Positions 3,284-59,914 are shown, counted from the first letter of the stretch. The stretch: 64,000 bases of DNA from Acidobacteriota bacterium (GCA_040755995.1 JBFMAF010000024.1:309940-373939); one strand, 5' to 3'. Notes: generated by a model not told the origin, from the letters alone. Numbers and translations are program-made.

Positions 3284-4699
3284 CTAGTCGTCCTCTGGCG
3301 GCTCGGATGGTTCGCCCTTGGCTGGCCGGATCTGGTACTGCTCCATCTTCTTGTACAGATTCGAGCGGGGGACGTCGATCTGGTTTGCTGTTTGAGATAT
3401 GTTCCAATCGTTCTCGCGGAGGCGGGTGAGGATGAAGTGTTTCTCGCAGAGGTCGCGGTATTCTCTCAGAGTGCGCGCGCCGGACACGTCCAGGATTCCG
3501 CGCGAGTTCGGCGGGGCCTTCTGGATCACCCCTTGCAGCATCAGGTCATCGGGGCCGATGCTGTCACCATCGCTCATGATCAAGAGCCGCTCGACCAGGT
3601 TTCTCAGCTCGCGGACGTTTCCGCGCCAGGGCATGGTGCGCATCGTCTGAATCGCATCCGGATGAAAGCTCTTGTTTCGAAGGCTGTTCTCCTGGATGTA
3701 CATCTGCCGAAAATGCTCCACCAGCGGCGGGATGTCATCGGGGCGCTCCCGCAGCGGCGGGCTCTGGATCGGGATCACGTTGAGCCTGAAATACAGGTCC
3801 TCGCGGAAACGGCCGGCCGTGATTTCGGCTTCGATCTCCTTGTTGGTCGCTGCGATGACCCTGACGTCGATCTTGATTATGCGATTCGCACCGATTCGCT
3901 CGATCTCCCCCTCCTGCAGCGCCCGGAGCACCTTTGCCTGCGTCTTCAGGCTCATGTCGCCGATCTCGTCCAGGAAGATCGTCCCGCCGCTCGCCTGCTC
4001 GAACTTCCCGATCTGTTTCTCGAAGGCTCCCGTGAACGAGCCCTTCTCGTGGCCGAACAGCTCGCTCTCGATCAGCTCCTCCGGTATCGCCGCGCAGTTC
4101 ACCTGGACAAACGGTTCGGACCTTCGGGTGCTGAGCCGATGGATCTGTCGCGCCACCAGCTCCTTGCCCGTCCCACTCTCGCCGCGAATCAGGACTGTGG
4201 CGTGGGTAGGCGCCGCCTTCTGAATCGTCTCCAGCAGGCGCCGCATAGGGGCGCTCTCGCCCACGATCCGATATCGATTCTCTTCACGCAATCTGAACCG
4301 GCGGTTCTCCCGGGCGAGGCTCGAATGCGACAGCGCGTTGCGGACGGTCAGCAGCAGCTTGTCACGCTCGAGGGGCTTCTCGAGGAAGTCGAAGGCGCCC
4401 TGCTTTGTCGCCTCGACGGCCGTCGACACGGTGCCGTGCCCGGAGATCATGATCACCTCGGGGGGCTCCGGCGAGGCCACGATTCTCGGCAGAAGCTCCA
4501 TGCCATCTACCTGCGGCATCTTGATGTCCAGCAGAACGATGTCAGGACGCTCCTCGTCGATCATCCGCAGCCCCTCGCCGGCGTCCCGGGCTCCGACGAA
4601 TACGTATCCCTCGTACTCCAGCACCATCTTCAGCGTGTCTCGAATGCCTTCGTCGTCGTCAATCACCAGAATGCGCGGTTTCCCCATCAGACCGGTCAC
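3284..4699 (-). CDS. Sigma-54-dependent response regulator (REC-AAA+-HTH; NtrX/ZraR-like)
   Basis: REC (DDD, LLDIKMP, KP); GESGTGKE, GSFTGA, FLDEIGD, WRGNVRELRN; Fis-type HTH. Confidence 0.95.
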   Translation of the reverse strand: MTGLMGKPRILVIDDDEGIRDTLKMVLEYEGYVFVGARDAGEGLRMIDEERPDIVLLDIKMPQVDGMELLPRIVASPEPPEVIMISGHGTVSTAVEATKQGAFDFLEKPLERDKLLLTVRNALSHSSLARENRRFRLREENRYRIVGESAPMRRLLETIQKAAPTHATVLIRGESGTGKELVARQIHRLSTRRSEPFVQVNCAAIPEELIESELFGHEKGSFTGAFEKQIGKFEQASGGTIFLDEIGDMSLKTQAKVLRALQEGEIERIGANRIIKIDVRVIAATNKEIEAEITAGRFREDLYFRLNVIPIQSPPLRERPDDIPPLVEHFRQMYIQENSLRNKSFHPDAIQTMRTMPWRGNVRELRNLVERLLIMSDGDSIGPDDLMLQGVIQKAPPNSRGILDVSGARTLREYRDLCEKHFILTRLRENDWNISQTANQIDVPRSNLYKKMEQYQIRPAKGEPSEPPEDD

Positions 4700-4968
4700 C
4701 TTTCTTGCGAGCGCAGCGGGAATGAGGGGCCGAGGACTGACTCACACACCCACGGCTCGAACACCCCTCATGCCAGCTCCAACCGTACCATGCTCACCAG
4801 CACACTTTCAAGCGGAGGCGGGATGAGGTAGCATTAATGTCCTGGGGGGATGTTGAGAAGCCGGTTTCGCTCTGCTTGCCTGAACCAGGGGGCGTGCCCA
4901 GGGAGCGTTCGGCACCAGGCGAGGAGGCGGCCCGGCATTCCGATCGACACCCGGCTAGTCACGACTGG

Positions 4969-7710
4969 ATGAAGCAAATGGAAACGGGTCCATCACGCAC
5001 TCCGATCTTCGTGTTCGATATCTGGGGATGCCGCGGCTCGCGCAATCTGGAGCCGGGGTCGTCGCGACTGGGCACGCGGACGCCCTGCTACTCCGTCCTC
5101 GGCAGGGAAGAGCTCCTCGTTTTCGACGCGGGCCGCGGACTCGCCGCGCTCGGCATCGCGATGAAGCAGGGCGTCCGGTATCAGAACGTCTCGCATATTC
5201 ACCTGCTAGTGAGCCACGCTCACATGGATCACTGGGAGGGGCTCAAGGATGTCGACTGGTTCTGGCTGAAGGACCGGCCCCTGGAAGTGACGCTCCATGG
5301 GCCGTCGGAAGCAGTCGAGGCCGCTCGCGCGGCATTCGCTCATCCGTCCTACGTTCCGCTGGAACAACTGGCCTCCGGCACCAACGTGCGCTTCGACGTG
5401 GATGCTCTGAAGGCCGGAGATGAGCGCGATCTCGGTTCGTTCCGCCTCAAGACGGCGGCTCTCAACCATTACAGCGGCAGCGGCCCCACCAAACGCATGC
5501 TGGACGCACTGGGATTCCGCGCTGAAGGGAAGGATGGGCCCGTCGTTTCCTATGTCTCGGATCACGAGCCATCGCCCAGCCATGCCGCGGATGAGGCCCG
5601 GCTGGTGACGGGCGCCTCGCTCATCGTGCTCGACGCTCACTATGCGAACATCTCCGAGCATTCATACGGACACGGGTCGATCGAGTACGCAGCGCGGATC
5701 GCGCGCTCGTATCCGGACACCCTGGTCATGGCCAGCCACATCGGCTCGCTTCTGAGCGACGAGTCCATCATCGAGTCGGTCCTCCGCCACGCCCAGGGCG
5801 TCGCCAATTTCCGGCTCTCGCGCGAGGGGGATTCGTATTTCTGGAACTGGCGGGAGCAGAAGTTCATCACGCACGGACAGCCCCCAGCCGTCTCCGTCGG
5901 ATCAGACGGCACACCGAGGCGGCCTTTCCCGAAGGGCGGTCTCGCGACGCCGGAAGACCTCCATATCCTCAGGCACGAGCTGAAGACCCCGATCAATCAG
6001 ATCATGGGCTATTCGGAGCTCATCGAGGAGGAGATGGAGGACAAGGGCGAATCATCGTACACCGCCGACCTGCGGAAGATCCACAAGGCCTCCCAGCAGC
6101 TGCTATACCTGGTCGATCAGATCCAGCTGCCTGACTCGGCCCCCGGCGCGCCGCCGCCGGTTCCGCAGCATTCAACCGGACTGGAACAGGCGACAGCCGA
6201 GATCGGGACCGACGACGAAGCCGCTGTCGCTCTTCCGGCGGATTACGATCAGAATGGAGCACCTGGCGAGCACGTGCTTGTGGTCGACGACAACGAGCTG
6301 AACCTTGACATGCTGTCGCGACGGCTGAAGGGGCGGGGCTACCGCGTCTCGGTTGCGAGCGACGGGCAGCAGGCGTTCGAGAAGGTGAATGCGGACCGGT
6401 TCGACGCGATCCTCCTGGATATAATGATGCCCGGCATCAGCGGGCTTGACGTGCTGAAGGCGCTGCGCAAGACGTATACTCCGGCCGACCTGCCGGTCAT
6501 CATGGCCACGGCGAGGGATCAGAGCGAGGACATCGTGGAGGCGCTGAAGCTCGGCGCAAACGACTACGTCACCAAGCCGCTCGATTTTCCCGTCGTCGTG
6601 GCGCGCCTCCGAACCCACCTCTCGCTGAAGAAGGCCAGGGATCGTGTGAACCGCCTGGTGGAAGGGTTGGAGGTCAGGAATCGATTCATACGAAAAACGT
6701 TCGGGCGGTATCTGAGCGACGACGTGGTAGCGAGTCTGCTGGAGAGTCCGGAGGGGCTCAAGCTTGGCGGCGACCGCCGCGTTGTGACCATGCTCATGGC
6801 CGACCTCCGAGGCTTCACCTCGATGACGCATGGGATGAACCCCGAGCTGGTCATGAGAGTCCTCAACAACTACCTGGGGACCATGGCGCACGTCATCACC
6901 AAGCATCGAGGGACAATTGACGAGTTCCTCGGCGACGGCATTCTGGCGCTGTTCGGGGCGCCGATTCAGGCTGAGGACGACCCGCGGCGCGCCCTCGCAT
7001 GTGCGCTCGAAATGCAGGTGGCGATCGAGGCGGTGAATGAACACAATGCGGCCGAGGGGCTGCCGTCGATCGACATGGGCGTCGCACTGAACACGGGCGA
7101 GGTCGTCGTTGGCAACATCGGATCAGAGACGCGGGCCAAGTACGGAGTGGTGGGTAGCCAGGTGAACCTGAGCGGGCGAATCGAGTCGTTCACAGTCGGC
7201 GGCCAGATTCTGATGACTGACGCCACACTGCAGGCGGCCGGCCGTGACGTGCACGTGGGGAAGGCGCTGGCGCTGAACGCGAAGGGCTTCAAGGAACCAG
7301 TGCGCGTCTACGAGCTCGTGGGACTCGGCGCGCCTTACAACATCTTCCTCCCGCAGCGGAAGGACGCGCCGGTCCAGCTCTCGCAGGAGATCCCCGTTCT
7401 TTGCTGGGTGCTGAGCGACAAGCTGATCGACACGGATGTATTCGAGGGGTTCATTACCGCATTGTCGCCCAGGGGTGGTGAGATGCGGTCTCTGGCCAGC
7501 CTGGAGCCTATGACCAACCTCAAGCTCCGCTTTGCCGGTGATCGTGAGAAGGTGCTCGATTCCGATATCTACGTCAAGGTGACATGTGCCGACGAGACGG
7601 CCCACGAACGGCTGAGCTTCCGCTTTACTTCGGCGCGGCCCGATGTGCTCGAATATATCCGGCAGCTTCGCGAGAACAACGGCCGGTTGCCTGGGGAGCC
7701 AGCACGCTAA
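4969..7710 (+). CDS. Fusion of MBL-fold hydrolase, HisKA, REC, class III nucleotidyl cyclase (Cya2-like) and a degenerate PilZ-like tail
   Basis: WGCRGS and SHAHMDH (HxHxDH); HELKTPINQIMGYSEL; VVDD..LLDIMMP..TKP; ADLRGFT, DEFLGDG, KYGVVGSQVNLSGR. Start uncertain (4837, 4969 or 4978). Confidence 0.88.
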   Translation: MKQMETGPSRTPIFVFDIWGCRGSRNLEPGSSRLGTRTPCYSVLGREELLVFDAGRGLAALGIAMKQGVRYQNVSHIHLLVSHAHMDHWEGLKDVDWFWLKDRPLEVTLHGPSEAVEAARAAFAHPSYVPLEQLASGTNVRFDVDALKAGDERDLGSFRLKTAALNHYSGSGPTKRMLDALGFRAEGKDGPVVSYVSDHEPSPSHAADEARLVTGASLIVLDAHYANISEHSYGHGSIEYAARIARSYPDTLVMASHIGSLLSDESIIESVLRHAQGVANFRLSREGDSYFWNWREQKFITHGQPPAVSVGSDGTPRRPFPKGGLATPEDLHILRHELKTPINQIMGYSELIEEEMEDKGESSYTADLRKIHKASQQLLYLVDQIQLPDSAPGAPPPVPQHSTGLEQATAEIGTDDEAAVALPADYDQNGAPGEHVLVVDDNELNLDMLSRRLKGRGYRVSVASDGQQAFEKVNADRFDAILLDIMMPGISGLDVLKALRKTYTPADLPVIMATARDQSEDIVEALKLGANDYVTKPLDFPVVVARLRTHLSLKKARDRVNRLVEGLEVRNRFIRKTFGRYLSDDVVASLLESPEGLKLGGDRRVVTMLMADLRGFTSMTHGMNPELVMRVLNNYLGTMAHVITKHRGTIDEFLGDGILALFGAPIQAEDDPRRALACALEMQVAIEAVNEHNAAEGLPSIDMGVALNTGEVVVGNIGSETRAKYGVVGSQVNLSGRIESFTVGGQILMTDATLQAAGRDVHVGKALALNAKGFKEPVRVYELVGLGAPYNIFLPQRKDAPVQLSQEIPVLCWVLSDKLIDTDVFEGFITALSPRGGEMRSLASLEPMTNLKLRFAGDREKVLDSDIYVKVTCADETAHERLSFRFTSARPDVLEYIRQLRENNGRLPGEPAR

Positions 7711-7955
7711 CTCAGTTCATGCGACAGTTGGACGAAGCGGTCGACGGTCGTCGGCTCAGGTTCGCGGGTGCAGAGGCGATGCAGTCGGATTGCGGCCGTC
7801 TCGGACACCAGGCAATCGATTGGCGATCTGTGGTATCCTAGAGGCCGAGCTTCGAAACGATCAAGTGAAGGAGTCACTCATTATCACGTCCGCGCTCCCG
7901 TGACGTGGGACATCCATCGGCCGATGAGATGAGATCGGCAGGGAGGAAGAAAGAC

Positions 7956-10034
7956 ATGGAATCCGTGACACTCGACGATGCCCGGCGCAACGACGTGGTG
8001 GCGGCGCTCGGGAAATGCCCGCTCTTCCGCGCGCTCAAGGCTGAGCACTTCCCTCAGATTATCAACATTGGTGAGCTCTACCAGTATGATCCGGAGGAGG
8101 TGATCATACGGCAGGGAGATCCCTCTGATTCGTTCTTCGTGATTGTGGATGGTGAGGTATCCGTGAGAGATGCCAAGCCCGACGGCGAGTACATAGAGCT
8201 CGGGCGAATGCCCGCGAAGAGCAGCGTCGGCGAGATCGGCCTGTTGTTGGATGAGCCTCGGACTGCCACCGTGGTGGCCACTCAGCAGGCGGTGGTGTTG
8301 AAGTTCGGCGCGAAGGCCTTCCATGTCATGTTCCAGAAGATCCCGGATTTCGGCGTGGGGGTTAGCCGCGGGCTGGCCCACCGGCTGGAGCAGGTATCGG
8401 GCCGTCGCGTAGCGCTGCCCGAGTACGACACGACGAAGCCGAGGCCCCCGGTCGACGTGCTCAGCCTGCTCCCCAGGGAGCTGTGCCAGCGCCATCGCAT
8501 CCTCCCGCTGCAGGTCGATGGGAGTATCGTCACGATGGGGTTCGTGGATGAGCCCAGCACGCAGGTGATGACCGCCGTTCGCGACCAGCTCGCCAGCATG
8601 GACATCAGACCCATGCACATCAACCTCGAGTTCTACAACAAGATCATGCAGAGCTACGTCGGGCTGGAAGGCTGGGGAGCGCCAGCCGAGGCTGCCCCCG
8701 AGGCGCCCCCAGCTGCACGACCTCAATCCAAGTCGCCTCGGCTGGATGGTCTGTTGGAGAGGGTGGTGGCGGAAGGCGCATCGGATTTGCACGTGTCCGC
8801 CGGCCACAAGCCTCACTGGCGCATAGAAGGCGACATGCAGACGATCGTGGACCTACCGGTGCTTGGCGAGAACGAGGTCTTCGAGCTGCTCCAGCCGGTA
8901 ATGGAACACAGGCATCTGGACGAGTTCGCGGAGAGAATGGACGCGGACTTCGCCTACGCGGTGCCCGGCCTCGCCCGTTTCCGCGTCAACATGTACAAGG
9001 ACAACCACGGGGTCGGTGCGGCTTTCCGTCTGATTCCGTCCAAGGTTCTCACACTCGATCAGCTCGGCCTCCCCGCAGTCCTCAAGAACTTCTGCGAGGT
9101 TCCCAAGGGGCTGATCCTGGTGACGGGTCCGACCGGCTGCGGGAAGTCCACAACCCTGGCCGCGATGATAGACCACATCATCAAGACGCGCAAGGCACAC
9201 ATCGTGACGCTGGAGGACCCGATCGAGTTCGTTCATCAGAGCGATGCCTGCCTGATCAACCAGCGCGAGATCGGGGGTCAGGTGCAGAGCTTCGGCAGAG
9301 GCTTGCGCGCCGCGCTGCGCGAGGACCCGGACATAGTTCTACTGGGCGAGATGCGGGATGCAGAGACGATCGCATTGGCGCTCGAGACCGCCAACACGGG
9401 CCACCTTGTGCTGGCCACGTTGCACACAAACACAGCCATCACGGCGCTCGACCGGATCATCGACTCGTTCCCCGGCGACCAGCAACCCCAGATTCAGAGC
9501 ACGCTCGGGGATGTGTTGAGAGGCGTCGTCGCGCAGATGCTCGTCAAGAAGATCGGCGGAGGCCGCATGGCCGTGTGCGAGGTCATGGTCGTGAACTACG
9601 CCATACAGAACCTCGTCCGCGAGAAGAAGACTCAACAGATCCCCAGCGTCATGCAGACGGCCAGGGGCATAGGGATGGCACTGCTCAACGACGAGCTTGC
9701 GAAGCTGGTGGAGGATCGGAAGATCGAGATGCAGGAGGCCATGAGCAAGGCCATCGACAAGGACGATCTCAACCGGCGCTTCCGGAGCGGCCTGACGCTC
9801 GCCGAGGACCCACCCACCTTCGAGCGGGTCCGGATCATCGCTGTGAGGCCGTCGACTCCGGCCTCCGAGGCCGGGCTGCATCGCGGAGACTACATCGTGG
9901 AATTCGCCGGGAAGCCGACCAAGGAGTACACGGTGGACGAGATTCGAGCCGCCTTCCGCATCGATATGCAGCACCAGCTCGGCATCCAGAGGGGTGACAA
10001 GCGCCTCAAGATTGTCATGGACATGCGCAAGTAA
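7956..10034 (+). CDS. pilT: PilT-family retraction ATPase with N-terminal cNMP-binding and GspE/PilB-N subdomains and a C-terminal PDZ
   Basis: GGAGG RBS; cNMP cassette GEIGLLLDEPRTATV; SDLHVSAG, RFRVN, GPTGCGKST, EDPIE, LREDPD, GEMRD, TLH, AIQNLVRE; PDZ (VRPSTPASEAGLHRGDYIVEFAG). Confidence 0.9.
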   Translation: MESVTLDDARRNDVVAALGKCPLFRALKAEHFPQIINIGELYQYDPEEVIIRQGDPSDSFFVIVDGEVSVRDAKPDGEYIELGRMPAKSSVGEIGLLLDEPRTATVVATQQAVVLKFGAKAFHVMFQKIPDFGVGVSRGLAHRLEQVSGRRVALPEYDTTKPRPPVDVLSLLPRELCQRHRILPLQVDGSIVTMGFVDEPSTQVMTAVRDQLASMDIRPMHINLEFYNKIMQSYVGLEGWGAPAEAAPEAPPAARPQSKSPRLDGLLERVVAEGASDLHVSAGHKPHWRIEGDMQTIVDLPVLGENEVFELLQPVMEHRHLDEFAERMDADFAYAVPGLARFRVNMYKDNHGVGAAFRLIPSKVLTLDQLGLPAVLKNFCEVPKGLILVTGPTGCGKSTTLAAMIDHIIKTRKAHIVTLEDPIEFVHQSDACLINQREIGGQVQSFGRGLRAALREDPDIVLLGEMRDAETIALALETANTGHLVLATLHTNTAITALDRIIDSFPGDQQPQIQSTLGDVLRGVVAQMLVKKIGGGRMAVCEVMVVNYAIQNLVREKKTQQIPSVMQTARGIGMALLNDELAKLVEDRKIEMQEAMSKAIDKDDLNRRFRSGLTLAEDPPTFERVRIIAVRPSTPASEAGLHRGDYIVEFAGKPTKEYTVDEIRAAFRIDMQHQLGIQRGDKRLKIVMDMRK

Positions 10035-10068
10035 CTGCTGCGGGCGGCAGGCGAGACGGGGGTAGGAG

Positions 10069-10725
10069 ATGACCAAGAGATCGTTCTTGTCGAAGGGCGC
10101 AGTGCTGTGGGAATTCGGCGATCTAGCCCGCAGCATCGCCGTGGTCGAACAGGGCAAGCTGGGCATCCGAACGGAGAAAGGGGACGTCATCGGCGTCGTC
10201 CTGCCGAAGATGATACTCGGCGAGACCGCCATCTTCACGCTCGATGGGCAGGCGCCGCGCCGAACGGCGACAGCGTTTGCGATGGAGGACTACACGCAGG
10301 TGACCGAATACCCCGTGCTAGTAGTGAAGGGCATGGTGGAGTCCGGCAATCTCGCGATCATCTCCCAGATCCTGAAGACGCTTACGGGCCAGGTGAGTCG
10401 AATCTGCCTGGTCCTGTCAGGGGCTAACAGGGATCGCCCGGTGATACGTTCGACGATGCAGGGACTGCTGACGGGCATCGTTCACTCGGCGAAGGAGCTC
10501 GGCACCATCACCACCTGGGACGACTTCTTCCGCGCCTTCCGATTCCTGTCGATATTCAGGGACGAGCTGGGCAGGCTCTGCGGGGACTTCATGCCCGGCG
10601 CAGCGGTGCAGTCGGAGACGCTCGACAAGCTGTCGACTACCATCAAAGAGATGTTCGGCGGCGATGACAGCATCGTCTTGCAGTTGGAGCAGTTCGTCGA
10701 TGCATCTCGGGAGAAGGAGACATAG
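10069..10725 (+). CDS. Cyclic-nucleotide-binding domain protein with a helical C-terminus
   Basis: GGAG RBS; LWEFGD..SIAVVEQGKL..LGETAIF..RTATAFA cNMP fold; no obvious Crp HTH. Confidence 0.75.
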   Translation: MTKRSFLSKGAVLWEFGDLARSIAVVEQGKLGIRTEKGDVIGVVLPKMILGETAIFTLDGQAPRRTATAFAMEDYTQVTEYPVLVVKGMVESGNLAIISQILKTLTGQVSRICLVLSGANRDRPVIRSTMQGLLTGIVHSAKELGTITTWDDFFRAFRFLSIFRDELGRLCGDFMPGAAVQSETLDKLSTTIKEMFGGDDSIVLQLEQFVDASREKET

Positions 10726-10825
10726 AGCAGAGACCTGCCCCGCGATGACTGCCCATTTCTCTGGGAGGACTGCGGCGGCGCGGGCCAAGGTGTCCGACGC
10801 CTCAGCCTCCGCCGCCGGCGGGTCA

Positions 10826-11545
10826 TCACGACTTCAACCTTATCGTGAACCTGCAGCCCTTCCCCGCCAGGTTGCGCCATTCAATGCTGGCGCCGCATAG
10901 GCGGCAGATCTTTGCGACGATTGTGAGGCCAAGCCCGGTCCCCTGTGTCGAGGTGGAGAAGAATGGGCGCAGTATTCTGGAGGCGTTCTCCGCCGGGATG
11001 CCTGGGCCCTCGTCGTCCACATGCAGCAAGACCCCGTTGTCCTGTGCCTGCCAAGAGACCATGACCGTGGAACCGGGAGGCGAGAAGCGAATCGCGTTCG
11101 AGAGGAGCTCCTCGACCACGGTGCGCAGATGCTCCCGGTTGCAGGTGACTCGGACGGGTTCCCCAGAGACCAGGACCAATGACACGTTCCCCCCGCGTGC
11201 CTCATGCAGAACACAACGGAGGCCGGTTGCGACTACCTCGGAGATGTCGAGGGAGCTGGGTCGAAGCGGCTCGATCTTGACGAACCGCTGCATGTCCCTG
11301 ACCGCTCCGTCGATTCTAGCCACCGCCGCGAGGATGCTCGTAACATAGTCGAGAATCTCCCCCTGCGGCTTGATGAGATGCTGGACAAGCTGCGCTCCAG
11401 ACTTGATCGTGGCCAACGGATTGCGGATTTCGTGTGCCAAGCGCAAGACCATCTCGCCCAGATCGTCGGCTGTGAACTCCTCGGACCCGGGTGTCAGTGC
11501 ATCGTCAAGTCGGGCCGATGCATCGGGACCGTTCCTACCAGGCAT
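10826..11545 (-). CDS. Histidine kinase without a sensor domain (HisKA + HATPase_c)
   Basis: LAHEIRNPL; ELLSNAIRFS, DDEGPGI, PFFST, GTGLGL. Confidence 0.9.
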   Translation of the reverse strand: MPGRNGPDASARLDDALTPGSEEFTADDLGEMVLRLAHEIRNPLATIKSGAQLVQHLIKPQGEILDYVTSILAAVARIDGAVRDMQRFVKIEPLRPSSLDISEVVATGLRCVLHEARGGNVSLVLVSGEPVRVTCNREHLRTVVEELLSNAIRFSPPGSTVMVSWQAQDNGVLLHVDDEGPGIPAENASRILRPFFSTSTQGTGLGLTIVAKICRLCGASIEWRNLAGKGCRFTIRLKS

Positions 11546-11689: not shown

Positions 11690-13318
11690 TCACTTCGGAG
11701 CCTCTCCCGGCTGGGCTTGCCCCGGCGGCGGCGCGGAAACCCTGTCCAGCACCTCCCTCACCCTACGCGCCAGCTCCCCGAGCTTGAAAGGTTTCGTCAA
11801 GGCCCCCCCCACTCTCTCATCGATGAGATCCGCTTGCTCGATCCCGTGCTCATATCCGGACATGTACAGGAAGTGGGTCTGGGGCGACAAGGACATGGCA
11901 CGGGAACGAAGCTCGCGCCCCCCCATCTGAGGCATGACAACGTCGGTTATCACAAGTTGCACCGGGGCTCGTGAGGAGCCAAGTATCTCCAGAGCCTCAC
12001 GTCCGTTGCGAGCAACCGTCACCTGGTAGCCGAGGAAGGACAAGGTCTTCTGCAAGATCCACCGAAGCTCCGGCTGATCCTCGACAACCAGTATCGACTC
12101 CTGCCCGCCTCGGGTCTTCTCATCGTGCAGGTCGCACTCGATCTCCTGAATCCTCTCCTCAGTCGGAGGAAGATACACGAAGAGGCTGGAGCCTCCACCG
12201 AGAGCACTGGTCGCATCAACCATCCCCTTGTGCTGCTTCACAATCGTATAGACCGTCGCGAGTCCCAGGCCCGTTCCGCCCGCGGCCAGCTTGGTCGTGA
12301 AGAAAGGCCTGAACACCCTTCCCAGGGTGTCTTGATCCATCCCGATGCCTGTGTCCTGGACGGCGATTCTCACGTAGCGCCCAGGTCTTCCCCACGGGTG
12401 GGTCGCGAGAAAGGCTTCTGTGATTGCCACATGTTCCGTCGAGATGGTGATGATTCCCGTGTCGGGTATTGCGTCATTGGCGTTGGCGCACAGATTCAAG
12501 ATCACCTGCTCCATCTGTCCCCTGTCGGCGACTACCGTCGCGGCCTGAGAACATAGCGCGAGCCGGACCTCGATGCTTTCACGGATGAGCCTGCGAAGCA
12601 TCGGCTGCATTTCCAGAATCATGGAATTCAGGTCGATCACAGCGTCCTGGCGCTCGCGGGGCCTTGCGAATGCGAGGAGTCCGCGGATGAGCTCCCTCGC
12701 CCGCTCGGCCGCACGGATGATGACACGGGTCTCTTCCAGGCCCGATTGATCAGGGGCGAAGCGGGCGCCGACTATCTCGCTCGCTCCCAGAATCACCGTG
12801 ATGAGGTTGTTGAAGTCGTGTGCAACGCTGCCCGCCAAGCGGCCGAGCGTCTCCATCCTCTGCGCCAGGCGCACCTGTTCTTGCATCTGGAACCGGTCAG
12901 TGACATCCGAGTAAATCGACGCGTATCCCACCGGCTGACCGACGCCATCCTGTAAGGGCAGGGCGACGATGTGATGGCTGAACTCCTTGCCGTCGGTCCG
13001 ACGACCGCTCACCAGGCCCCGCCAGACCTGGCCCCGCGCGAGACATTCGCGCGGCCGCTGGCACGGTTCAGCGAGACCCTCATCCCTGAACAAGAGGTGA
13101 TCCTTGCCCATCACCTCCTCCGGGGACGAGGCCACCATCCGCAAGTAAGCCTCGTTCGCATATCGCGTCCTGCCTGCGGTGTCAGTGATCACGACCCCCT
13201 CTGCCAGCTGGTCGAGCACGTTCAGCAGTGCGCTGCGATCCGCACCCCGGACGGAAGCTGTCCTCGCCACCTCTCTGGGCCCCCTTTCCAATGCGGGCTG
13301 CACTGCCTCGTCGTTCAT
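11690..13318 (-). CDS. PAS-domain hybrid histidine kinase (CckA-like PAS-HisKA-HATPase-REC)
   Basis: PAS/PAC; AHDFNNL; NLCANANDA, DTGIGM, PFFTTK, GTGLGL; REC VITDVVMP..KPF. Start 13318 chosen over the ORF start 13609. Confidence 0.92.
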   Translation of the reverse strand: MNDEAVQPALERGPREVARTASVRGADRSALLNVLDQLAEGVVITDTAGRTRYANEAYLRMVASSPEEVMGKDHLLFRDEGLAEPCQRPRECLARGQVWRGLVSGRRTDGKEFSHHIVALPLQDGVGQPVGYASIYSDVTDRFQMQEQVRLAQRMETLGRLAGSVAHDFNNLITVILGASEIVGARFAPDQSGLEETRVIIRAAERARELIRGLLAFARPRERQDAVIDLNSMILEMQPMLRRLIRESIEVRLALCSQAATVVADRGQMEQVILNLCANANDAIPDTGIITISTEHVAITEAFLATHPWGRPGRYVRIAVQDTGIGMDQDTLGRVFRPFFTTKLAAGGTGLGLATVYTIVKQHKGMVDATSALGGGSSLFVYLPPTEERIQEIECDLHDEKTRGGQESILVVEDQPELRWILQKTLSFLGYQVTVARNGREALEILGSSRAPVQLVITDVVMPQMGGRELRSRAMSLSPQTHFLYMSGYEHGIEQADLIDERVGGALTKPFKLGELARRVREVLDRVSAPPPGQAQPGEAPK

Positions 13319-13926
13319 ACTCTTCCCGTTTTCATGGGCTAACAGGATACCTTCAGTATCCATCCCGCTACGTGCCGCGCGGCGGACTCGCTCGTCTGCC
13401 ACGACGACCCGCCCTCCCGGAGGCGGGTTCCTCTCGGTTGCCCCAATGCCCCGGCCGGCATGGCTGGACCGCTCGATGCGGTACCCCGGCCGCATCCTGT
13501 GTACCGCTGCATTCCCGCTGTCCACAGGTCGGCGGCACCCGTCAGCATGGTCCATCCCTGTTAATATGAGCCAGCGCGAGGATGACTGTAGTCGGACGAA
13601 AGCCCTCATGTGCCATATGGCAGAGTCCTACCCGATTGGCGCCCTGAGGGCACGCCCTGCGTCGGCCCGGCCGCGCACGGTGTGCTCTTGCCGAACGAGC
13701 CAGTCTTCAGTCGCATCCAACAATTCTCCCTCAACTAAGGATGATTTGGCCAGAAGGGCCCATCTTGCGCGGTAATGTGGATTTTTTTTCGGCGGATGAA
13801 ACCGGGACAGTGCTCATGAACAACCGGGCATACCCGTGACACCGAGACCAGGTGCGTGAATGACGGGTGCGCGGAGGGCTTCAGACTCGTGAATTGTGAT
13901 ATCATGTGCGGCAGATCACGTGAGAC

Positions 13927-15243
13927 ATGGCCCTCTGTCTAGTAGTCGAAGACGACCCGGACGAGAGCCGGGTGCTGGCAGGAGCGCTTCGCGCGGGTGG
14001 TCATCAGGTCCTGTGCGCGAGGGACGGCCGCTCGGCCTCGGAGATCTGCCATCTCCACCGACCCGAGCTCGTACTTCTGGATCTGGGCCTGCCTGATATT
14101 GACGGGATGAGCCTGATCCCGACCCTGATCCGGCTTTCCCCATTCAGTCGGGTGGTGGTGCTCACCGGGCTTGACAGCGTCCGGGCTTCCGTCGCGGCTC
14201 TGCGCGCTGGCGCCCGTCACTACCTGGTGAAGCCATGGGACCTCGAGGAGCTCCTGCTGATCGTCGAGAGGGAGTCGCGCAGTGTCGACTCGAACGAGGT
14301 GTGTGCCAGGGAGCGGGTTGGATCCGTCTTCTGGGGCACGCACCCCGCGATGACACGCCTGAGGCGGCAGCTGGAGAAGTTGTCCGGGGCTCCGACCACC
14401 CCGGTTTTCATAGAGGGTGAGACGGGGAGCGGCAAGGAGGTCATAGCGAGGGAGCTGCACCGGCTGACTGCTGATGCCAAGGAATTCCTCGCGCTAAACT
14501 GCGCGGCGATACCAGGTGAGCTTCTGGAGAGCGAGCTGTTCGGGCACGAGCGCGGCGCATTCACCGGCGCCGAGATGCGACGCAGAGGATTGGTGGAGCT
14601 CGCACGTGACGGCACGCTCTTCCTTGACGAGGTATCGGAGACGCCCCCTTCACTGCAGGCGAAGCTCCTTCGTTTCCTCCAGGATCATCGATTCAGGAGG
14701 GTAGGCGGTGAGGTGGAGCTCTCGGCTCCGAGTCGGGTTGTCGCAGCCACTCACCGCGATGTCGATGCGCTGGTGCAGGAGGGCAGATTCAGAAACGACC
14801 TGTTCTACCGGCTGGCTGTCGTGCGCCTGAAAGTCCCTCCCCTCTGTGCACGTCGCGACGATCTCCTCCCACTCGCCTACTTCCTCATCCAGACGATTGC
14901 CCGAACCCTTGGGCGAGCACCTCGCCAGCTGACTCCCTCTGCCGAGCAGGCCGTATTAGACCATGACTGGCCCGGCAACGTGCGAGAGCTCAAGAACCGC
15001 CTCGAGCGAGCAACGGTTCTCGGGGAGGGTGAGTACATCCAGCACGAAGACCTCGACCTTCCAGGGAGTCCGCCGCGAGCGACGCAGCGCCCTGCTGCCG
15101 GCAAGACAACCGAGCAGCTCAGCAGGGTGCTGGAGGCGGAGCGCTGGAACATCTCCAAGGCCGCGAGGCGCCTGGGCGTAGAGCGGCACTGGCTCCGGTA
15201 TCGCCTGAAGAAAATGGGGCTCAGCAGGCCGGTCGATCGGTAG
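13927..15243 (+). CDS. Sigma-54-dependent response regulator
   Basis: REC LLDLGLP; GETGSGKE, GAFTGA, FLDEV, WPGNVRELKN; C-terminal HTH. Confidence 0.95.
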   Translation: MALCLVVEDDPDESRVLAGALRAGGHQVLCARDGRSASEICHLHRPELVLLDLGLPDIDGMSLIPTLIRLSPFSRVVVLTGLDSVRASVAALRAGARHYLVKPWDLEELLLIVERESRSVDSNEVCARERVGSVFWGTHPAMTRLRRQLEKLSGAPTTPVFIEGETGSGKEVIARELHRLTADAKEFLALNCAAIPGELLESELFGHERGAFTGAEMRRRGLVELARDGTLFLDEVSETPPSLQAKLLRFLQDHRFRRVGGEVELSAPSRVVAATHRDVDALVQEGRFRNDLFYRLAVVRLKVPPLCARRDDLLPLAYFLIQTIARTLGRAPRQLTPSAEQAVLDHDWPGNVRELKNRLERATVLGEGEYIQHEDLDLPGSPPRATQRPAAGKTTEQLSRVLEAERWNISKAARRLGVERHWLRYRLKKMGLSRPVDR

Positions 15244-22842: not shown

Positions 22843-22968
22843 TTCTTGTCGGGTGAACTCGGAAGCCACTATGAGAAGTGCACGTGGATATGATAGTTTT
22901 AAGATTGCGAAAAGGGAAGGGGACTTCCCATGGTGCGTGCTGCAAACCGACGTGAACGTTGAGTGCCG

Positions 22969-24552
22969 ATGCCATATCTGATCCTCAATCCAGGGACCTC
23001 TAACGAGCAATCCTTCCAGCTCAAGACCGGGGCGAACACCATCGGCAGGGACATGGAGAACGACATCGTCATCCTGCAGACGACATTGTCGCGCCGCCAC
23101 GCCCGGATCGATGTGACTGCCGACCGAGTATTCGTCACGGACCTGCAGAGCCGCAACGGGACGTTCGTGAACGACGTCAAGATCGATCAGAGGGAGGTTC
23201 GCAACGGGGATCTCATCCGCTGCGGCAGCTCTGTGATGAGGTTCACCGAGGGGCAGCGGATCGAGAAGGAGCTCAAGTCCACAGGGGCATCCTCGCTGGG
23301 CGAGCTGCTGATCAAGGACTCGATCGACATCCACGGCACCGTCCTGAGGCTGAAGCAGAAGGACGAGACCAGCCGGAGCGTCGACATGCTGCGCGTCCTT
23401 CTCAAGGTGAGCGAGCTCCTCTCATCTCCCGAGAACATCGACACGATCCTGGGTAGCACCCTGGACCTCTTGTTCGCGATCGTGGACGTCGATCGCGGAG
23501 CGATCTACCTGCTCGACGACAAGACCGGCGACCTGATTCCTGCCGCGGTGAAGCTGGCGCCCGGGCTCGACCCGAACCGGCCGTTCTCCAGCCGGCACAT
23601 CCTCAACCATGTGCTCGAGAAGGGGATTGGTGTCCTGAGCTCCGATGCGGTGGTCGACACGCGTTTCGCCGGGGCTGCCTCGATTCTGGATCAGTCGATA
23701 CATTCCTCCATGTGCGTCCCTCTCAAGTGCCGCGACAAGACCACAGGCGTTCTGTACGTGGACAATCTCATCCGTTCGGACCTGTTCGCCGAAGCGGATC
23801 TGGAGTTCCTCAGCGGCTTTGCAAATCAGGCGGCCGTCGCCATCGAGAACTCCCGGTTGTACCGGAGAATCGAAGAGGATGCTATCGCTCGCAATCGCCT
23901 TCTTCGCTTCTTTCCCCGCGCGGTCATCAACAAGCTGATGGAATCCAAGGATCTCGGCCTGGGCTCAGTCGACGCAGACGTCACGATCCTGTTCTCCGAC
24001 ATATGCAGTTTTACAGAGACCTCCTCGACGATGGAGCCACGACAGGTAGTTGATCTTCTGAACGACTACTTCCCTGTGATGGCCGAGATCGTGTTCCGCC
24101 ACGGCGGCACGCTGGAGAAGTACATCGGAGACGCTTTGATGGCTATCTGGGGAGCGCCGTTTCAGGATCCCGAGGACGCTGATCGCGCCCTGGGGGCGGC
24201 CATCGAGATGCAGCACGCGCTGAGGCAGCTCAACCGGAAATTGGTGGAGTGCGGAAGGGTCGAGATACACATCCACATCGGCTTGAACAGCGGCACGGTG
24301 GCCGCGGGCAACATCGGCTCGGCAGACTACATCCAGTATGCCGCCATAGGAGATGCTACCAACGTGGCGAGCCGAGTCTGCTCGGCGGCTCAGAGGGACG
24401 AAGTGCTCGTTTCCCAGGAGACGTACGCCAAGCTGACGAACAAGTCACTGCCCTTCGAGTCCCTTCCGCCTACGATGGTGAAGGGCAAAGACAAGCCGCT
24501 CCAGCTCCATCGCATCCGATGGGATCTCGTGCCGAAGGTGAGCAGCCAATGA
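22969..24552 (+). CDS. FHA-GAF-class III adenylate cyclase (CyaD-like architecture)
   Basis: FHA (IGR..SRRHA..SRNGTFVN); GAF (MCVPL..GVLYVD..ANQAAVAIEN); cyclase FSDI..EKYIGDA..IGDATNVASR. Confidence 0.92.
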   Translation: MPYLILNPGTSNEQSFQLKTGANTIGRDMENDIVILQTTLSRRHARIDVTADRVFVTDLQSRNGTFVNDVKIDQREVRNGDLIRCGSSVMRFTEGQRIEKELKSTGASSLGELLIKDSIDIHGTVLRLKQKDETSRSVDMLRVLLKVSELLSSPENIDTILGSTLDLLFAIVDVDRGAIYLLDDKTGDLIPAAVKLAPGLDPNRPFSSRHILNHVLEKGIGVLSSDAVVDTRFAGAASILDQSIHSSMCVPLKCRDKTTGVLYVDNLIRSDLFAEADLEFLSGFANQAAVAIENSRLYRRIEEDAIARNRLLRFFPRAVINKLMESKDLGLGSVDADVTILFSDICSFTETSSTMEPRQVVDLLNDYFPVMAEIVFRHGGTLEKYIGDALMAIWGAPFQDPEDADRALGAAIEMQHALRQLNRKLVECGRVEIHIHIGLNSGTVAAGNIGSADYIQYAAIGDATNVASRVCSAAQRDEVLVSQETYAKLTNKSLPFESLPPTMVKGKDKPLQLHRIRWDLVPKVSSQ

Positions 24553-39999: not shown

Positions 40000-40779
40000 C
40001 TACCCGCGCTCCTCCTTCTCCGCCGTCACACGATTGAACATTGCGTACAGCTGCTTGAAGTGCTGGAGGCTTTCGCAGATCAGGGGCTCGAGACTCGGCA
40101 GATCCGCCTTGTTCACCGTGACGTTGGCGCCGTGCAGGAAGGCGGTGTTGGCATCGCCTGTTCTGAGGGTTGAGGAGATCAAGACGACGAGCGTCTGCCG
40201 GCGCTGGACCGGTTTCTGCCCGTTGATCTTCGCGATGATCTTGATGCCGCCCTCGGGATCATCCGGGAATGCCTGGCCCACAGTGATCAGCTGGTAGGTC
40301 CCCGACGACACCTCCTGGATCGCATCGGCGGCGCTCCGTGCCACTTCCACCGAGTATCCCAGGCGGCTCAGGACCCGCGAGATCCCATCGACCTGGCCCT
40401 GATCATCGTCGCAGATCAGGGCCCTCTTCGCGCCGTACTCGCGGCCGGAGTCTTCGGCGGCAAGGGCGGTTTCGGCCGGGTCGAGGTCGCGTCCGAAGAG
40501 AGCCCTCACGGAGTCCAGGATCTCCTTTTTCGTCGCCGCCAGCTCGCGCCTGACATACGCCTGAACGGCGGGCGAGATCTCGTCTCCTGGTGGCGAAGCC
40601 GCCTGGCCCGAGGCAGCCGGGACATGCGGGCTCGACGGAGGCGCGGCCGTCCTGGTCGCATCCTTTTGCACAGTGACGATCTTCCCGCAGTTCGGGCAGG
40701 GCGTCCGGAAGACGCCGGTGGGCGCTTTCGCATCATCGATCTGGATCAGGTTCTTGCAGTCGGGACAGCTCACTCTCAT
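40000..40779 (-). CDS. Zinc-ribbon (MJ0042-like) plus pseudo-receiver domain protein
   Basis: CPDC..CPNC; Pro/Ala linker; REC-like fold with ICDDD but LITVG where the phospho-Asp is expected. Confidence 0.75.
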   Translation of the reverse strand: MRVSCPDCKNLIQIDDAKAPTGVFRTPCPNCGKIVTVQKDATRTAAPPSSPHVPAASGQAASPPGDEISPAVQAYVRRELAATKKEILDSVRALFGRDLDPAETALAAEDSGREYGAKRALICDDDQGQVDGISRVLSRLGYSVEVARSAADAIQEVSSGTYQLITVGQAFPDDPEGGIKIIAKINGQKPVQRRQTLVVLISSTLRTGDANTAFLHGANVTVNKADLPSLEPLICESLQHFKQLYAMFNRVTAEKEERG

Positions 40780-40790: not shown

Positions 40791-42035
40791 CTACTCCAGC
40801 CAGTCCGGCTTGTTCTCCACCCGAGTCGGGCCGGGGCCCGTCCGTGCCTTGGGCGGTGGGCTTGCGGCCGGCGCCGGAGCGGGACTCGGCGGCGGTTGCT
40901 CCACTTCAGCGCCCGGAGCAAGCTGATCGATCGCAGCGTCCGACCCCAGCCCCTGGAACGCGAGCGCAAGGTTGCCGGGATTGGTGGCGTAGCTCAACGC
41001 CACCTGCTCCTCGATTATCCCCGCCTGCACCATCCTCTCCAGCTCGCTGTCGAACGCCTGCATGCCGTCGAGATGCCCGTCGTTCATCGCATCCACCAGG
41101 GAACGCCCCTCCGACTCCCCCCTGACGATGTACTCGCGCGTGCGCAGCGTCGACCTCAGAATCTCGATCGCGGCGACCCGCCCGCCGCCTCTCTTGGGAA
41201 CCAGGCGCTGGGAGATGACCCACTTGAACGTCTGCGCGAACCGCGTGCGGATCTGCTGCTCCTCGTTCGTCGGGAAGATGCCGATGATGCGGGCGATCGT
41301 CTTGGAAGCGTCGATCGTGTGGAGCGTGCTAAGAACGAGATGGCCCGTCTCGGCGGCCTCCAACGCAATCTCCGTGGTCTCGGCGTCCCGCATCTCGCCC
41401 ACAAGCACTACTTTGGGCGCCTGCCTCAACGCCGCGCGCAGCGCCAGCGAGAAGGTCGTGGTGTCCGTGCCAAGCTCGCGCTGGTTCACAGTCGACTTCT
41501 TGTGCTGGTGAAGGTACTCGATCGGATCCTCGATGGTCACGATATGGTACGCGTGTTTTTCATTGATGTCGTTGATGATGGCCGCCAATGTCGTCGACTT
41601 CCCGCTGCCGGTCGGGCCCGTCACAAGCACGATCCCGTTCTTCTCCTCAGCCACGGCGTACAGAGCCTTGGGCAATCCCATCTGGGCAATCGACGGCACG
41701 CCCGAGGGAATCACGCGCATCACGATCGCGAACGTACCACGCTGCAAGAACACGTTCACGCGAAAGCGCGTCACGCCGGGTATGCTATAAGACAGGTCGG
41801 TTGAACCCGTATGGACCAGTTTCCGCATGGTCTCCTGATCCTGTCCCATCAGACTGAGCGCGATCATCTCGGTCTGATACGGGCTGAGCCTCTCCATCCC
41901 CTTGATCGGCACGGACACCAGCTCGCCGCTCACCTCCACCTGCGGCGGCCTGCCGACCGAGAAGTTCAAGTCGGATATGCCCTCGCGCATGCGAAGCATC
42001 GATTCGAAGATCCGGTTTACCTCCACCTTGTTCAT
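40791..42035 (-). CDS. pilT: PilT/PilU-family type IV pilus ATPase
   Basis: SDLNF, RFRVN, GPTGSGKST, EDPIE, LRQAP, GEMRD, STLH; lacks a clear AIRNLIRE motif; Pro-rich tail. Confidence 0.9.
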   Translation of the reverse strand: MNKVEVNRIFESMLRMREGISDLNFSVGRPPQVEVSGELVSVPIKGMERLSPYQTEMIALSLMGQDQETMRKLVHTGSTDLSYSIPGVTRFRVNVFLQRGTFAIVMRVIPSGVPSIAQMGLPKALYAVAEEKNGIVLVTGPTGSGKSTTLAAIINDINEKHAYHIVTIEDPIEYLHQHKKSTVNQRELGTDTTTFSLALRAALRQAPKVVLVGEMRDAETTEIALEAAETGHLVLSTLHTIDASKTIARIIGIFPTNEEQQIRTRFAQTFKWVISQRLVPKRGGGRVAAIEILRSTLRTREYIVRGESEGRSLVDAMNDGHLDGMQAFDSELERMVQAGIIEEQVALSYATNPGNLALAFQGLGSDAAIDQLAPGAEVEQPPPSPAPAPAASPPPKARTGPGPTRVENKPDWLE

Positions 42036-42186
42036 GGTGTGCCCCCAGTGCTCCAACGAGATATCGCTACTGCCTGAGAAGTATCTCACGACGAGACCGC
42101 AGAGGCAATCGTGGGCGGACTCTCCCGCTCCGATTGTCATCCTCCTGATACACAGCCATGTGGATTCGTGCTATGGTGGAGTTGAG

Positions 42187-58003: not shown

Positions 58004-58452
58004 CGAGCACCAGGCCACGAACCCCCGCCCCTAACCCGACTGTCATCGCCGAACTACGCCCCGCCCCCACCACTTGCCCTTCGTGCGCCACGCCGGTAGC
58101 CGCTTTGGTCAAGCTACCAAGCCGCGATGTCCCGTCTGTGCGCCCGGGCTTGCCCCGCCCACCAGATCGAGCACCTCGCACGAACCCCCCGCCCCCCTCA
58201 TGCGTCAGCGCTGTAAGAAAAACGACATCGTTGACCTCGGCCTTCGAGGTGTGATATTCGTTCGGCATGAGAGCCAGCATGAGGGGGCATTGCTGTGACA
58301 GGTGGTTTCTCTGAGGTAGCTATCTCGACGGCGGTGGCGCTGGAGCGGATTGGTGTGCGCTGCCGGCCGCTTGACTTAGCACCGCGCCAAATTCTCCCCC
58401 CCCCCGCAGTAGGAATTTATCTCCCGCGCGAGTTTTGGGAGCTGGGGCTCTC

Positions 58453-59427
58453 ATGACTGCTCGTTGCGCGTGGTGTAGTGTCTTCCGGCCTCTCGGCGCT
58501 GCTATGCTCGCGGGTCTGTTCCTGATGCATGCAGGCTGCGCCAACAGTCCCCCGTCGGCAACGAACGATCAAGCTACCATCGTGCTGCAAGCGTCGCCGT
58601 CGAAGGTGGCTCAGCGGGGGCGTGCAACCATCATTGCAACAGGCATCAAGAAGACTGGGGCTCCCATATGGCCCGGCATGATCATAACGTTCACCGCCGA
58701 CCGCGGTCGCATCGATCCGGCCGAGGCCGCCTTCGACGCGAACGGACGCGCAGAGGTGACCTACTTCGCGCCTGACGCGATCTGTACGGCGAACGTCGAC
58801 GCGACTTCGGGCAGCGTGGATATCGCAGCCATAACAATCGAAGTAGGTTCAGTGGCGAGCTCGGTAGTGCTGACTGCGAGCCGCACGTCGCTCCCGGAGC
58901 GCGGCGGAACGGTGACGCTCCGGGCGGCTGCCTACGACGAAAGCAGCAATCCGGTGGCAAGAACGTCGATCGTGTTCACGGCGACGGCCGGTGCGTTGGG
59001 CTCCGGTGGGCGGCCCGTGCTCACGAACGCATCGGGCACGGCCAAAGACCATCTCACGACGACTGCCAGTGCCACCGTCGTTGCCTATGCCGGCTCAGCC
59101 GCGAGCACCGAGGTTGAGATCACGGTGGAAGAGCCGGTGGAAAACGAGCCGCCGACCGCCGACTTCGTGTATTCGCCGCAAAGCCCGTCGACGAGGGAGA
59201 AGGTGTACTTCAACGGTGATGTCTCCTCCGATCCAGACGGTCGCATAGTGAGGTGGGAATGGGACCTTGGCGACGGCACGACGGTTTCCGGCAAGCGGAC
59301 GAGCCATTCCTACATCACCGCGGCCACGTATGCGGTGGTCCTCTGTGTCACTGATGACGACGGAGCCCGCGACTGCCAATCGTATGACGTGGTTGTCGCC
59401 GAGCCCGCGGCAGCCACCGCGAGGTAG
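58453..59427 (+). CDS. Lipoprotein with two bacterial Ig-like (invasin/Big_1) domains and a PKD domain
   Basis: AGC lipobox; Ig-like repeats; PPTADF..SSDPDG.I..WEWDLGDG..VTDDDG. Start uncertain. Confidence 0.8.
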   Translation: MTARCAWCSVFRPLGAAMLAGLFLMHAGCANSPPSATNDQATIVLQASPSKVAQRGRATIIATGIKKTGAPIWPGMIITFTADRGRIDPAEAAFDANGRAEVTYFAPDAICTANVDATSGSVDIAAITIEVGSVASSVVLTASRTSLPERGGTVTLRAAAYDESSNPVARTSIVFTATAGALGSGGRPVLTNASGTAKDHLTTTASATVVAYAGSAASTEVEITVEEPVENEPPTADFVYSPQSPSTREKVYFNGDVSSDPDGRIVRWEWDLGDGTTVSGKRTSHSYITAATYAVVLCVTDDDGARDCQSYDVVVAEPAAATAR

Positions 59428-59430
59428 ACC

Positions 59431-59913: not shown

Positions 59914-59914
59914 G

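Follow-up and report, generated by a model that had tools for sequence, protein, structure and literature searches.

A 64,000-nucleotide stretch of an Acidobacteriota bacterium genome (GCA_040755995.1, JBFMAF010000024.1:309940-373939; "the window" hereafter means this whole stretch) carries three co-oriented plus-strand genes, here called g1, g2 and g3, which combine a class III nucleotidyl cyclase, a PilT-family ATPase bearing its own cyclic mononucleotide (cNMP)-binding domain, and a small cNMP-binding protein (Table 1). Open reading frame (ORF) calling placed them at 4837/4978-7710, 7956-10034 and 10069-10725, with gaps of 245 bp between g1 and g2 and 34 bp between g2 and g3, confirming the three co-oriented genes described here by an earlier sequence-only reading of the window. 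Every domain score in the three genes lies above the curated cut-off of its model, and the matches are therefore not chance.

Table 1. Features of the g1-g3 locus and of the genes next to it, in window coordinates (aa, amino acids; MBL, metallo-beta-lactamase; REC, receiver; DHp, dimerization and histidine phosphotransfer).
Feature	Coordinates	Strand	Basis
g1, MBL-HisKA-REC-class III cyclase-C-terminal domain, 957 aa from ATG 4837	4837..7710	+	ORF, Pfam, translation
g1 MBL fold (Lactamase_B_2), HAHMDH and all other conserved metal ligands; candidate cNMP phosphodiesterase	4990..5880	+	PF12706
g1 HisKA (DHp), H-box RHELKTP	5965..6123	+	Pfam PF00512, 34.9 bits
g1 receiver; acidic pocket DD, LLDIMMPG Asp, Thr and Lys present	6274..6609	+	PF00072, 105.8 bits
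g1 class III nucleotidyl cyclase, Cya2-like, Glu/Gly pair (IDEFLGDG and KYGVVGSQVN)	6784..7287	+	PDB search, motifs
g1 C-terminal domain of ~130 aa, ends RFTS	7318..7707	+	Alignment with neighbour cyclases
g2, cNMP-binding + GSPII/MshEN-like + PilT core + PDZ ATPase, 692 aa	7956..10034	+	Pfam, TIGR01420
g2 cyclic-nucleotide-binding domain, cassette GEIGLLLDEPRTAT	8082..8336	+	PF00027, 66.7 bits; regular expression
g2 GSPII/MshEN-like domain (LLPRELCQRHRILPL)	8433..8612	+	PF05157, 29.5 bits
g2 PilT-family ATPase core	8742..9767	+	TIGR01420, 3JVU match, motifs
g2 C-terminal PDZ domain	9807..10013	+	PF17820/PF13180
g3, small cNMP-binding protein, 218 aa	10069..10725	+	Pfam
REC-sigma54 activator-HTH_8 regulator, divergent, upstream of g1	3284..4699	-	Pfam
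HisKA + HATPase_c kinase, sensor-less, downstream	10826..11545	-	Pfam
PAS hybrid histidine kinase with receiver, downstream	11690..13609	-	Pfam

The ATG of g2 is preceded by GGAGG, with GTG 7905 as an alternative start, and its database cluster (P0004) has the same length of 692 residues. Judged from its sequence, the core of the protein is truly PilT-like. It scores 438.7 bits on TIGR01420 (pilT_fam, cut-off 319.1) over profile positions 2-343 of 343, far above its scores on the GspE, PilB, DotB and VirB11 models, and it aligns end to end with the retraction ATPases of Pseudomonas aeruginosa (3JVU, 353 bits), Aquifex (2EWV) and Geobacter (6OJX), the latter two and 5ZFQ scoring 319-324 bits, PilU (9N32) 234 and GspE 131. 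All ATPase motifs are intact (Walker A GPTGCGKST, Asp box EDPIEF, Walker B REDPDIVLLGEMRD, His box TGHLVLATLH), and AIQNLVRE keeps six of the eight positions of AIRNLIRE, the PilT signature. What separates g2 in domain make-up from these retraction ATPases is what flanks the T2SSE match (165.9 bits): a cNMP-binding and a GSPII-like domain at the N terminus and a PDZ domain (27.4/27.7 bits) at the C terminus.

The sequence-only reading was right that this PilT carries a cNMP-binding domain of its own. The domain scores 66.7 bits against a cut-off of 27.5 and retains the Glu and Arg of GE...R[T]A, the pattern of a cNMP-binding cassette; across 20 aligned family members, the window's included, the Gly, Glu, Arg and Ala of this cassette do not vary, nor does an RHR motif in the GSPII-like domain (the row of P0033 is apparently frameshifted). 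CRP/FNR-type folds are also used to bind other ligands, and the g2 domain might have become a structural or dimerization module or a receptor for something else, but the invariant cassette and a score so far above the cut-off make such a loss of cyclic nucleotide binding improbable. The second N-terminal domain matches PF05157 over profile positions 9-68 only. We found in g2 neither a strict nor a relaxed core match to the 24-residue c-di-GMP motif of MshEN domains, RLGxx(L/V/I)(L/V/I)xxG(L/V/I)(L/V/I)xxxxLxxxLxxQ, and because that motif is missing we read the domain as a GSPII-like fold and not as a c-di-GMP receptor.

The sensor-bearing PilT is a family and not a peculiarity of one genome. 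A search with the first 290 residues of g2 returned 139 proteins at E<=1e-5, and 110 of the 120 matches listed (P0004-P0113, the window's included) cover the whole N-terminal module; 109 of these 110 clusters carry a precomputed T2SSE match and 90 also PDZ families. The clusters come mostly from Acidobacteriota and Myxococcota metagenome-assembled genomes, the named organisms being Vicinamibacteria, and where a source name is given it is PilT or PilT/PilU family ATPase. No study of a PilT that bears a cNMP-binding domain came up in a full-text literature search, and the sequence-only reading likewise knew of no characterized system with this layout. The fusion is a conserved, unstudied family, whose parts are all of known kinds and whose combination is an uncharacterized variant: a dedicated PilT subfamily in which a sensor and a GSPII-like, presumed docking domain precede the PilT hexamer core and a PDZ domain follows it. 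Among 401 genomes of the window's phylum, 17 (a tally that includes G048) match the N-terminal query at E<=1e-15, and six of them hold the full sensor-GSPII-PilT gene (G000, which is the window's own genome, G009, G023, G041, G056 and G119). Four others of the 401 (L125-L128; for example L127, 9774-11912, plus strand) encode a 712-residue protein with a cNMP-binding domain, MshEN and a full-length T2SSE, which groups with PilB in a quick tree and places the sensor on an extension- or secretion-type motor; the remaining seven matches are sensor-only, partial or uncertain. The same-family genomes G001 and G002 lack the fused gene, and a sensor on their nearest PilT paralogues was ruled out, the N-terminal extensions of these having no Pfam domain.

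For comparison of neighborhoods we assembled 55 loci holding the fused gene, 14 from species genomes (L040-L053), 5 from phylum genomes (L120-L124) and 36 from metagenomes (L129-L164), leaving aside L165 and weaker sensor-only matches, and searched them with each domain of g1, g2 and g3. The loci were gathered with one peptide pattern per scan, which limits the recall of family loci.

The identification of one reader of the nucleotide with the retraction ATPase itself holds for the PilT-like core and needs qualification as to the motor's role. Five genes of the genome, g2 among them, exceed the TIGR01420 cut-off, and the best-scoring one lies between PilB (787 bits, above its cut-off) and a PilC-family gene on contig C28; g2 is therefore an extra PilT and not the housekeeping motor. 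In the same quick tree (32 cores, SH-aLRT [Shimodaira-Hasegawa-like approximate likelihood ratio test] support only, midpoint root, one row from G025), PDZ-type cores form a clade with support 99 in which the window's core pairs with P0006 (support 98), and the genome's other four PilT paralogues fall, with a group of nine cores that have no sensor, in a clade separated by a branch of support 95, so these four paralogues lie outside the PDZ-type group. Such a protein might be regulated by a nucleotide and yet perform no type IVa retraction, powering another type IV filament or secretion-like machine or acting as a regulatory ATPase. That reading draws on the number of paralogues and their separate clade, on the GSPII-like and PDZ domains, which canonical PilT lacks, on the sensor + MshEN + full T2SSE (PilB/GspE-like) fusions of the phylum, and on two points that also count against g2 as a pilus motor, namely its distance from the canonical pilB-pilT-pilC cluster and the failure of pilus genes to recur beside the fused gene in the 55 neighborhoods, which leaves g2 without pilB/pilC linkage. 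Given that bona fide PilT structures are the nearest relatives of the core, that the AIRNLIRE-like motif is retained, and that no alternative machine is encoded next to g2, we consider a role other than type IVa retraction unlikely, though a serious competitor.

The sequence-only reading's cyclase-hydrolase fusion was correct as to both domains of g1 and incomplete, with a DHp-only HisKA and a receiver lying between them. From ATG 4837 (ATG 4969, the start previously assumed, and ATG 4978 are alternative in-frame starts, and the Atlas record begins at residue 48), Pfam detects Lactamase_B_2 at residues 95-302 (45.9 bits), HisKA at 377-429 (34.9), Response_reg at 480-591 (105.8) and Guanylate_cyc at 650-817 (71.3). 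The translation of the receiver reads VVDDN, LLDIMMPG, MATA and YVTKP, which hold the acidic pair, the phospho-acceptor Asp, the Thr and the Lys of a two-component receiver. Pfam finds no HATPase_c after the HisKA domain, so that g1 lacks the HisKA + HATPase_c pairing of a histidine kinase, and the same holds for the related cyclases of L139 and L140. The C-terminal domain is conserved after Glu/Gly cyclases and has no Pfam family at E<=1; its Atlas structural matches are the C termini of many bacterial cyclases, CHASE2 types included, and a possible PilZ-like fold (Atlas score 0.83) is a weak lead.

The nature of the cyclase bears most directly on the identity of the messenger. In a PDB search the g1 cyclase domain matches Synechocystis Cya2 best (2W01, 222 bits, E 3.6e-65), other bacterial adenylyl cyclases reaching at most 108 bits, and the domain matches PF00211 at 71.3 bits with its metal Asp and Glu/Gly pair in register with 2W01 (ADLRGFT, IDEFLGDG and KYGVVGSQVNLSGR), together with a conserved catalytic Asn/Arg region. 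The substrate-binding Glu occupies the same column in g1 and Cya2, and the engineered adenylyl cyclase chain 6FHT differs there in having Lys. As described in PMC5995499, Cya2 is a guanylyl cyclase to which the single exchange E488K gives adenylyl cyclase activity. Because Cya2 is the best match, because the Glu/Gly pair is shared and because that one exchange switches the nucleotide in Cya2, the earlier designation of the g1 product as probably cyclic GMP (cGMP) is well founded by homology, and by analogy with Cya2 biochemistry (PMC5995499) we would expect g1 to prefer GTP over ATP. Both proteins extend C-terminally past the cyclase core, that of Cya2 being described as uncharacterized in the same source; the two differ in that Cya2 is CHASE2-regulated and membrane-bound (PMC5995499), whereas g1 is soluble, HisKA-REC-gated and MBL-bearing.

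The wiring could be the same with cyclic AMP (cAMP), or both nucleotides, as messenger, the sensors of g2 and g3 reading cAMP from any cyclase of the genome and the adjacent Glu/Gly cyclase being secondary. Arg-Thr-Ala cassettes do not discriminate, occurring in cAMP and cGMP receptors alike; the genome encodes five class III cyclases, one of them in the window (22963-24552) with Lys at the substrate position; a Lys/Asp cyclase stands beside the Glu/Gly one in L140 and L206; and most fused-PilT loci have no adjacent cyclase. Against this, the g1-family cyclases beside fused PilT are of the Glu/Gly type in all three loci that retain the substrate region (L046, L139 and L140a) as well as in the window, and the cyclases fused to the MBL domain are all Glu/Gly, which together make a cAMP-based circuit rather unlikely in our estimation.

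Several other cyclases deserve mention in their own right. The gene at 22963-24552 (plus strand) is a third class III cyclase in the window, with its PF00211 match at 23977-24498 and, by eye, FHA-like and GAF-like regions upstream in frame. The other Cya2-like Glu/Gly cyclase of the genome (L201, 9053-11887, minus strand, contig C9 of G000) is a 944-residue REC-GGDEF-REC-cyclase protein, 59% identical to g1 over the cyclase and C-terminal domains and adjoining a large hybrid kinase with an Hpt domain; this one protein may make both c-di-GMP and a cNMP. At L140 (812-5062) and L206, which are unrelated loci, a Glu/Gly cyclase lies beside a Lys/Asp (adenylyl-type) HisKA-REC-cyclase, and such pairs may provide a paired cGMP/cAMP output.

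The MBL-fold domain of g1 is the candidate eraser. It scores 45.9-48.6 bits on PF12706 (cut-off 27) and has HxHxDH with the further ligands; across 31 aligned MBL sequences, H78, H81, H160, D191, H228 and H250 are invariant and H76 and D80 at least 90% conserved, and g1 has them all. A full-library search with the domain found 1200 proteins at E<=1e-3 and 21 at E<=1e-30. Among full-length 50%-identity representatives, the MBL-HisKA-REC-cyclase fusion is repeated in P0126, P0129 and P0132 (878-899 residues; HisKA unmatched in P0132 at the threshold used), all three with HxHxDH, the Glu/Gly pair and a C-terminal RFT motif, while P0125 and P0130 are apparent partial copies and the other best matches are stand-alone MBL proteins. 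The AlphaFold2 model of the domain (pLDDT [predicted local distance difference test] 92.6, pTM [predicted template modeling score] 0.92) has Bacillus subtilis YhfI as its top Foldseek match in the PDB (6KNS, E 9.5e-15, TM score by target 0.71-0.76), with an arylsulfatase, an ElaC homologue, PhnP, Brucella MBL-like proteins in structures with GMP/AMP, RNase Z, yeast PDE1, PqqB and phage Apyc1 among the lower ones. In PMC9117128, YhfI is reported to prefer cAMP and cGMP strongly, and such enzymes are called class II phosphodiesterases with HxHxDH; Mycobacterium tuberculosis Rv1339, which hydrolyzes cAMP and cGMP, is assigned to PF12706 and termed "atypical class II" in PMC9293780.

Evidence of another kind counts against an eraser. 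The g1 domain is remote from these enzymes in sequence, scoring 20.1 bits on NF041851 where the cut-off is 400, and PF02112, the typical class II phosphodiesterase family, is unreported for it at E<=1. It may instead be another hydrolase of the RNase Z or PhnP kind, or a sensory or regulatory domain, leaving a locus with a writer and readers and no eraser: its best NCBIfam matches are partial RNase Z (37 bits), a PDB sequence search with the region gave nothing significant (best PhnP, E 0.35), and its structural neighbors, at TM scores of 0.6-0.75, span substrates as varied as those of arylsulfatase, PqqB and RNase Z. The repeated fusion to Glu/Gly cyclases and, more distantly, to a cNMP-binding + GGDEF protein points the other way, as do the complete set of metal ligands and the cAMP/cGMP phosphodiesterase activity of YhfI and other PF12706 members (in the two sources cited above). 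We put a domain with some other role at somewhat less than an even chance and lean slightly toward a cNMP hydrolase, a predicted activity that would be embedded, in contrast to the class II and atypical class II enzymes, in a receiver-gated cyclase protein; the eraser of the sequence-only reading is thus plausible on account of its MBL fold and is retained at that strength. A distant relative of the domain, P0179 (875 residues, MBL + cNMP_binding + GGDEF), ties this MBL subfamily to both cNMP and c-di-GMP signaling. An MBL hydrolase is likewise combined with cNMP-binding domains in the cGMP signaling of Dictyostelium, where GbpA and GbpB unite an MBL-fold phosphodiesterase with such domains; these proteins differ from g1 in being eukaryotic and without a cyclase fusion.

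The third gene is, as previously described, a stand-alone cNMP-binding protein. Its domain (10087-10311) scores 37.4 bits, above the 27.5-bit cut-off, and keeps the Glu and Arg of the cassette (GETAIF...RRTAT), whose Gly, Glu, Arg and Ala are invariant across three aligned sequences. The C-terminal half is helical and has no Pfam match, and an AlphaFold2 model from the three-sequence alignment (mean pLDDT 56.6) was too poor for a fold search. One homologue besides g3 was found by word search, and the Atlas cluster has 156 members. Pfam detected no DNA-binding domain in either g2 or g3.

From these parts we propose, at about an even chance, that the locus encodes a receiver-gated cyclic-nucleotide module, its messenger most likely cGMP, which feeds directly into an accessory PilT-class motor ATPase. 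A histidine kinase, probably an adjacent one, would phosphorylate the g1 receiver, and phosphorylation would set the output of the dimeric Cya2-type Glu/Gly cyclase and may also control the N-terminal MBL phosphodiesterase domain, so that one protein would both make and remove the signal. The resulting cGMP would be read by the N-terminal sensor of g2 and by g3, and its binding might alter the ATPase activity of g2 or its oligomeric (hexamer) state, or might affect how the GSPII-like and PDZ domains dock g2 on a type IV filament machine. A bolder form of this proposal, which we hold only tentatively and regard as doubtful, is that local cGMP, set by a bifunctional, receiver-gated g1, acts on the fused sensor of a dedicated PilT-class motor and thereby switches the motor allosterically. 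It would be the first case in which a cyclic mononucleotide directly controls the motor of a type IV filament and, because PilB/GspE-like ATPases of the phylum carry sensor fusions as well, would belong to a broader and so far undescribed signaling logic that leads from cNMPs to motors in Acidobacteriota and Myxococcota.

The sequence-only reading had made co-occurrence of the three genes elsewhere a test of its proposal, and for the full layout the 55 loci largely go against it, although the core pairing of cyclase and fused PilT does recur. A HisKA-REC-cyclase-C-terminal-domain gene like g1 minus the MBL domain adjoins the fused PilT in five of them (L046, L137, L139, L140 and L153), or in four of the 28 loci whose flanking DNA amounts to 5 kb or more, and L041 has HisKA and REC fragments at a contig end. 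The Glu/Gly pair is present in the cyclases of L046, L139 and L140a, the contigs of L137 and L153 holding only the C-terminal parts of their cyclases, and the second cyclase of L140 is of the Lys/Asp type. The cyclase is upstream and divergent in L046; in L140 and L153 it is upstream and shares the strand of the PilT, in the window it directly precedes the PilT, and in L137 and L139 it is downstream and convergent, with a single-domain receiver gene in between, which amounts to at least four arrangements of order and orientation with the window included. Single-domain receiver genes abut PilT in L131, L136, L137 and L139 and are divergent in L041, L140 and L153, and a CHASE4-HAMP-PAS kinase adjoins the cyclase in L139. 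Where the two genes are not adjacent, in the PDZ-type genomes of L040, L042 and L043, all three genomes encode a full-length Glu/Gly cyclase of the g1 family at another place; the matches in the two Myxococcales genomes were a shorter Glu/Gly one and a generic one. The linkage of the cyclase and the fused PilT is real but partial, and the related loci in which it is seen are not independent of each other.

A considerable body of evidence weighs against the proposed module. The exact three-gene layout occurs in none of the 55 related loci, an MBL domain adjoins the fused PilT in none of them, and a g3 homologue is found in one (L040, 40% identical, opposite strand). No cyclase was found in 11 loci that extend 8 kb or more in each direction (L040, L043, L047, L048, L120-L123, L142, L152 and L160), and nine loci share housekeeping-type neighbors instead (such as EamA, peptidase S9 and phosphatidylserine decarboxylase). 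Nor do cyclase and fused PilT track each other in the 401-genome phylum sample: full-length homologues of the cyclase are encoded by G000 (two copies), G001, G050, G058, G165 and G263, of which only G000 has both genes and the other five lack the fused PilT, and the five other genomes with a fused (PDZ-less) PilT have no full-length cyclase homologue (no cyclase match at E<=1e-35 in G023, G009 and G056; partial ones, 39-40% identical, in G041 and G119). Finally, with 14 cNMP-binding matches and five class III cyclases encoded in the genome, cross-talk with other circuits is possible.

Calcineurin-like phosphoesterase genes were also seen near the fused PilT, Metallophos_2 and Metallophos recurring in three loci each in housekeeping-type neighborhoods; in L142 the two genes lie at 8439-8939 (minus strand) and 13544-15055 (plus strand).

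Among second messengers, c-di-GMP acting on extension ATPases is the main established case of post-translational control of a pilus motor. MshE, PilB and PilF resemble g2, as we propose it to work, in receiving a second messenger on the N-terminal domain of a T2SSE-family motor, a likeness extended by the weak MshEN/GSPII match of g2, and they differ from it in that g2 is without the c-di-GMP motif, has a cNMP-binding domain as its sensor and is built on a PilT-type motor. Cyclic mononucleotides, in turn, act on pili via transcription factors, and both the cAMP-Vfr/CyaB system of Pseudomonas and cAMP-SyCRP1 of Synechocystis control type IV pili in this way, whereas the g2 sensor is fused to the motor protein itself. 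The domain content of g1-g3 suggests a direct nucleotide switch on a pilus-type motor. Bacterial cGMP signaling has few known effectors. An intact and conserved cNMP sensor on a PilT-class ATPase, in a family with repeated links to Cya2-type cyclases, would allow the action of a cNMP on a motor to be tested directly. The MBL-cyclase fusion, which is also recurrent, would be the cNMP counterpart of the GGDEF-EAL "make and break" proteins, and all parts of the module are soluble domains amenable to binding and activity assays.

The genes around g1-g3 are themselves signaling genes, with the divergent regulator upstream and the two kinases downstream, and we infer that the sensor-less kinase is a candidate phosphodonor for the g1 receiver. 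A scan of 4600-11000 returned one promoter-like element (1.3 expected) and four terminator-like ones (2.7 expected) and was unusable; the sigma-54 promoter pattern was rejected, with 54 matches where 57.6 were expected and a match at 4694 that lacks the GG doublet. Farther along the window, a PKD/Big_1-domain protein is followed by a secretin (58435-62146, plus strand; GspD/PilQ-like, under the equivalog cut-offs), beside which no other secretion or pilus genes were identified. A second PilT-family ATPase of the window (40791-42140, minus strand) scores 397.7 bits on TIGR01420 and is followed on the same strand by a zinc-ribbon + receiver protein (40000-40779), and the two thus form another accessory PilT with its own response-regulator partner.

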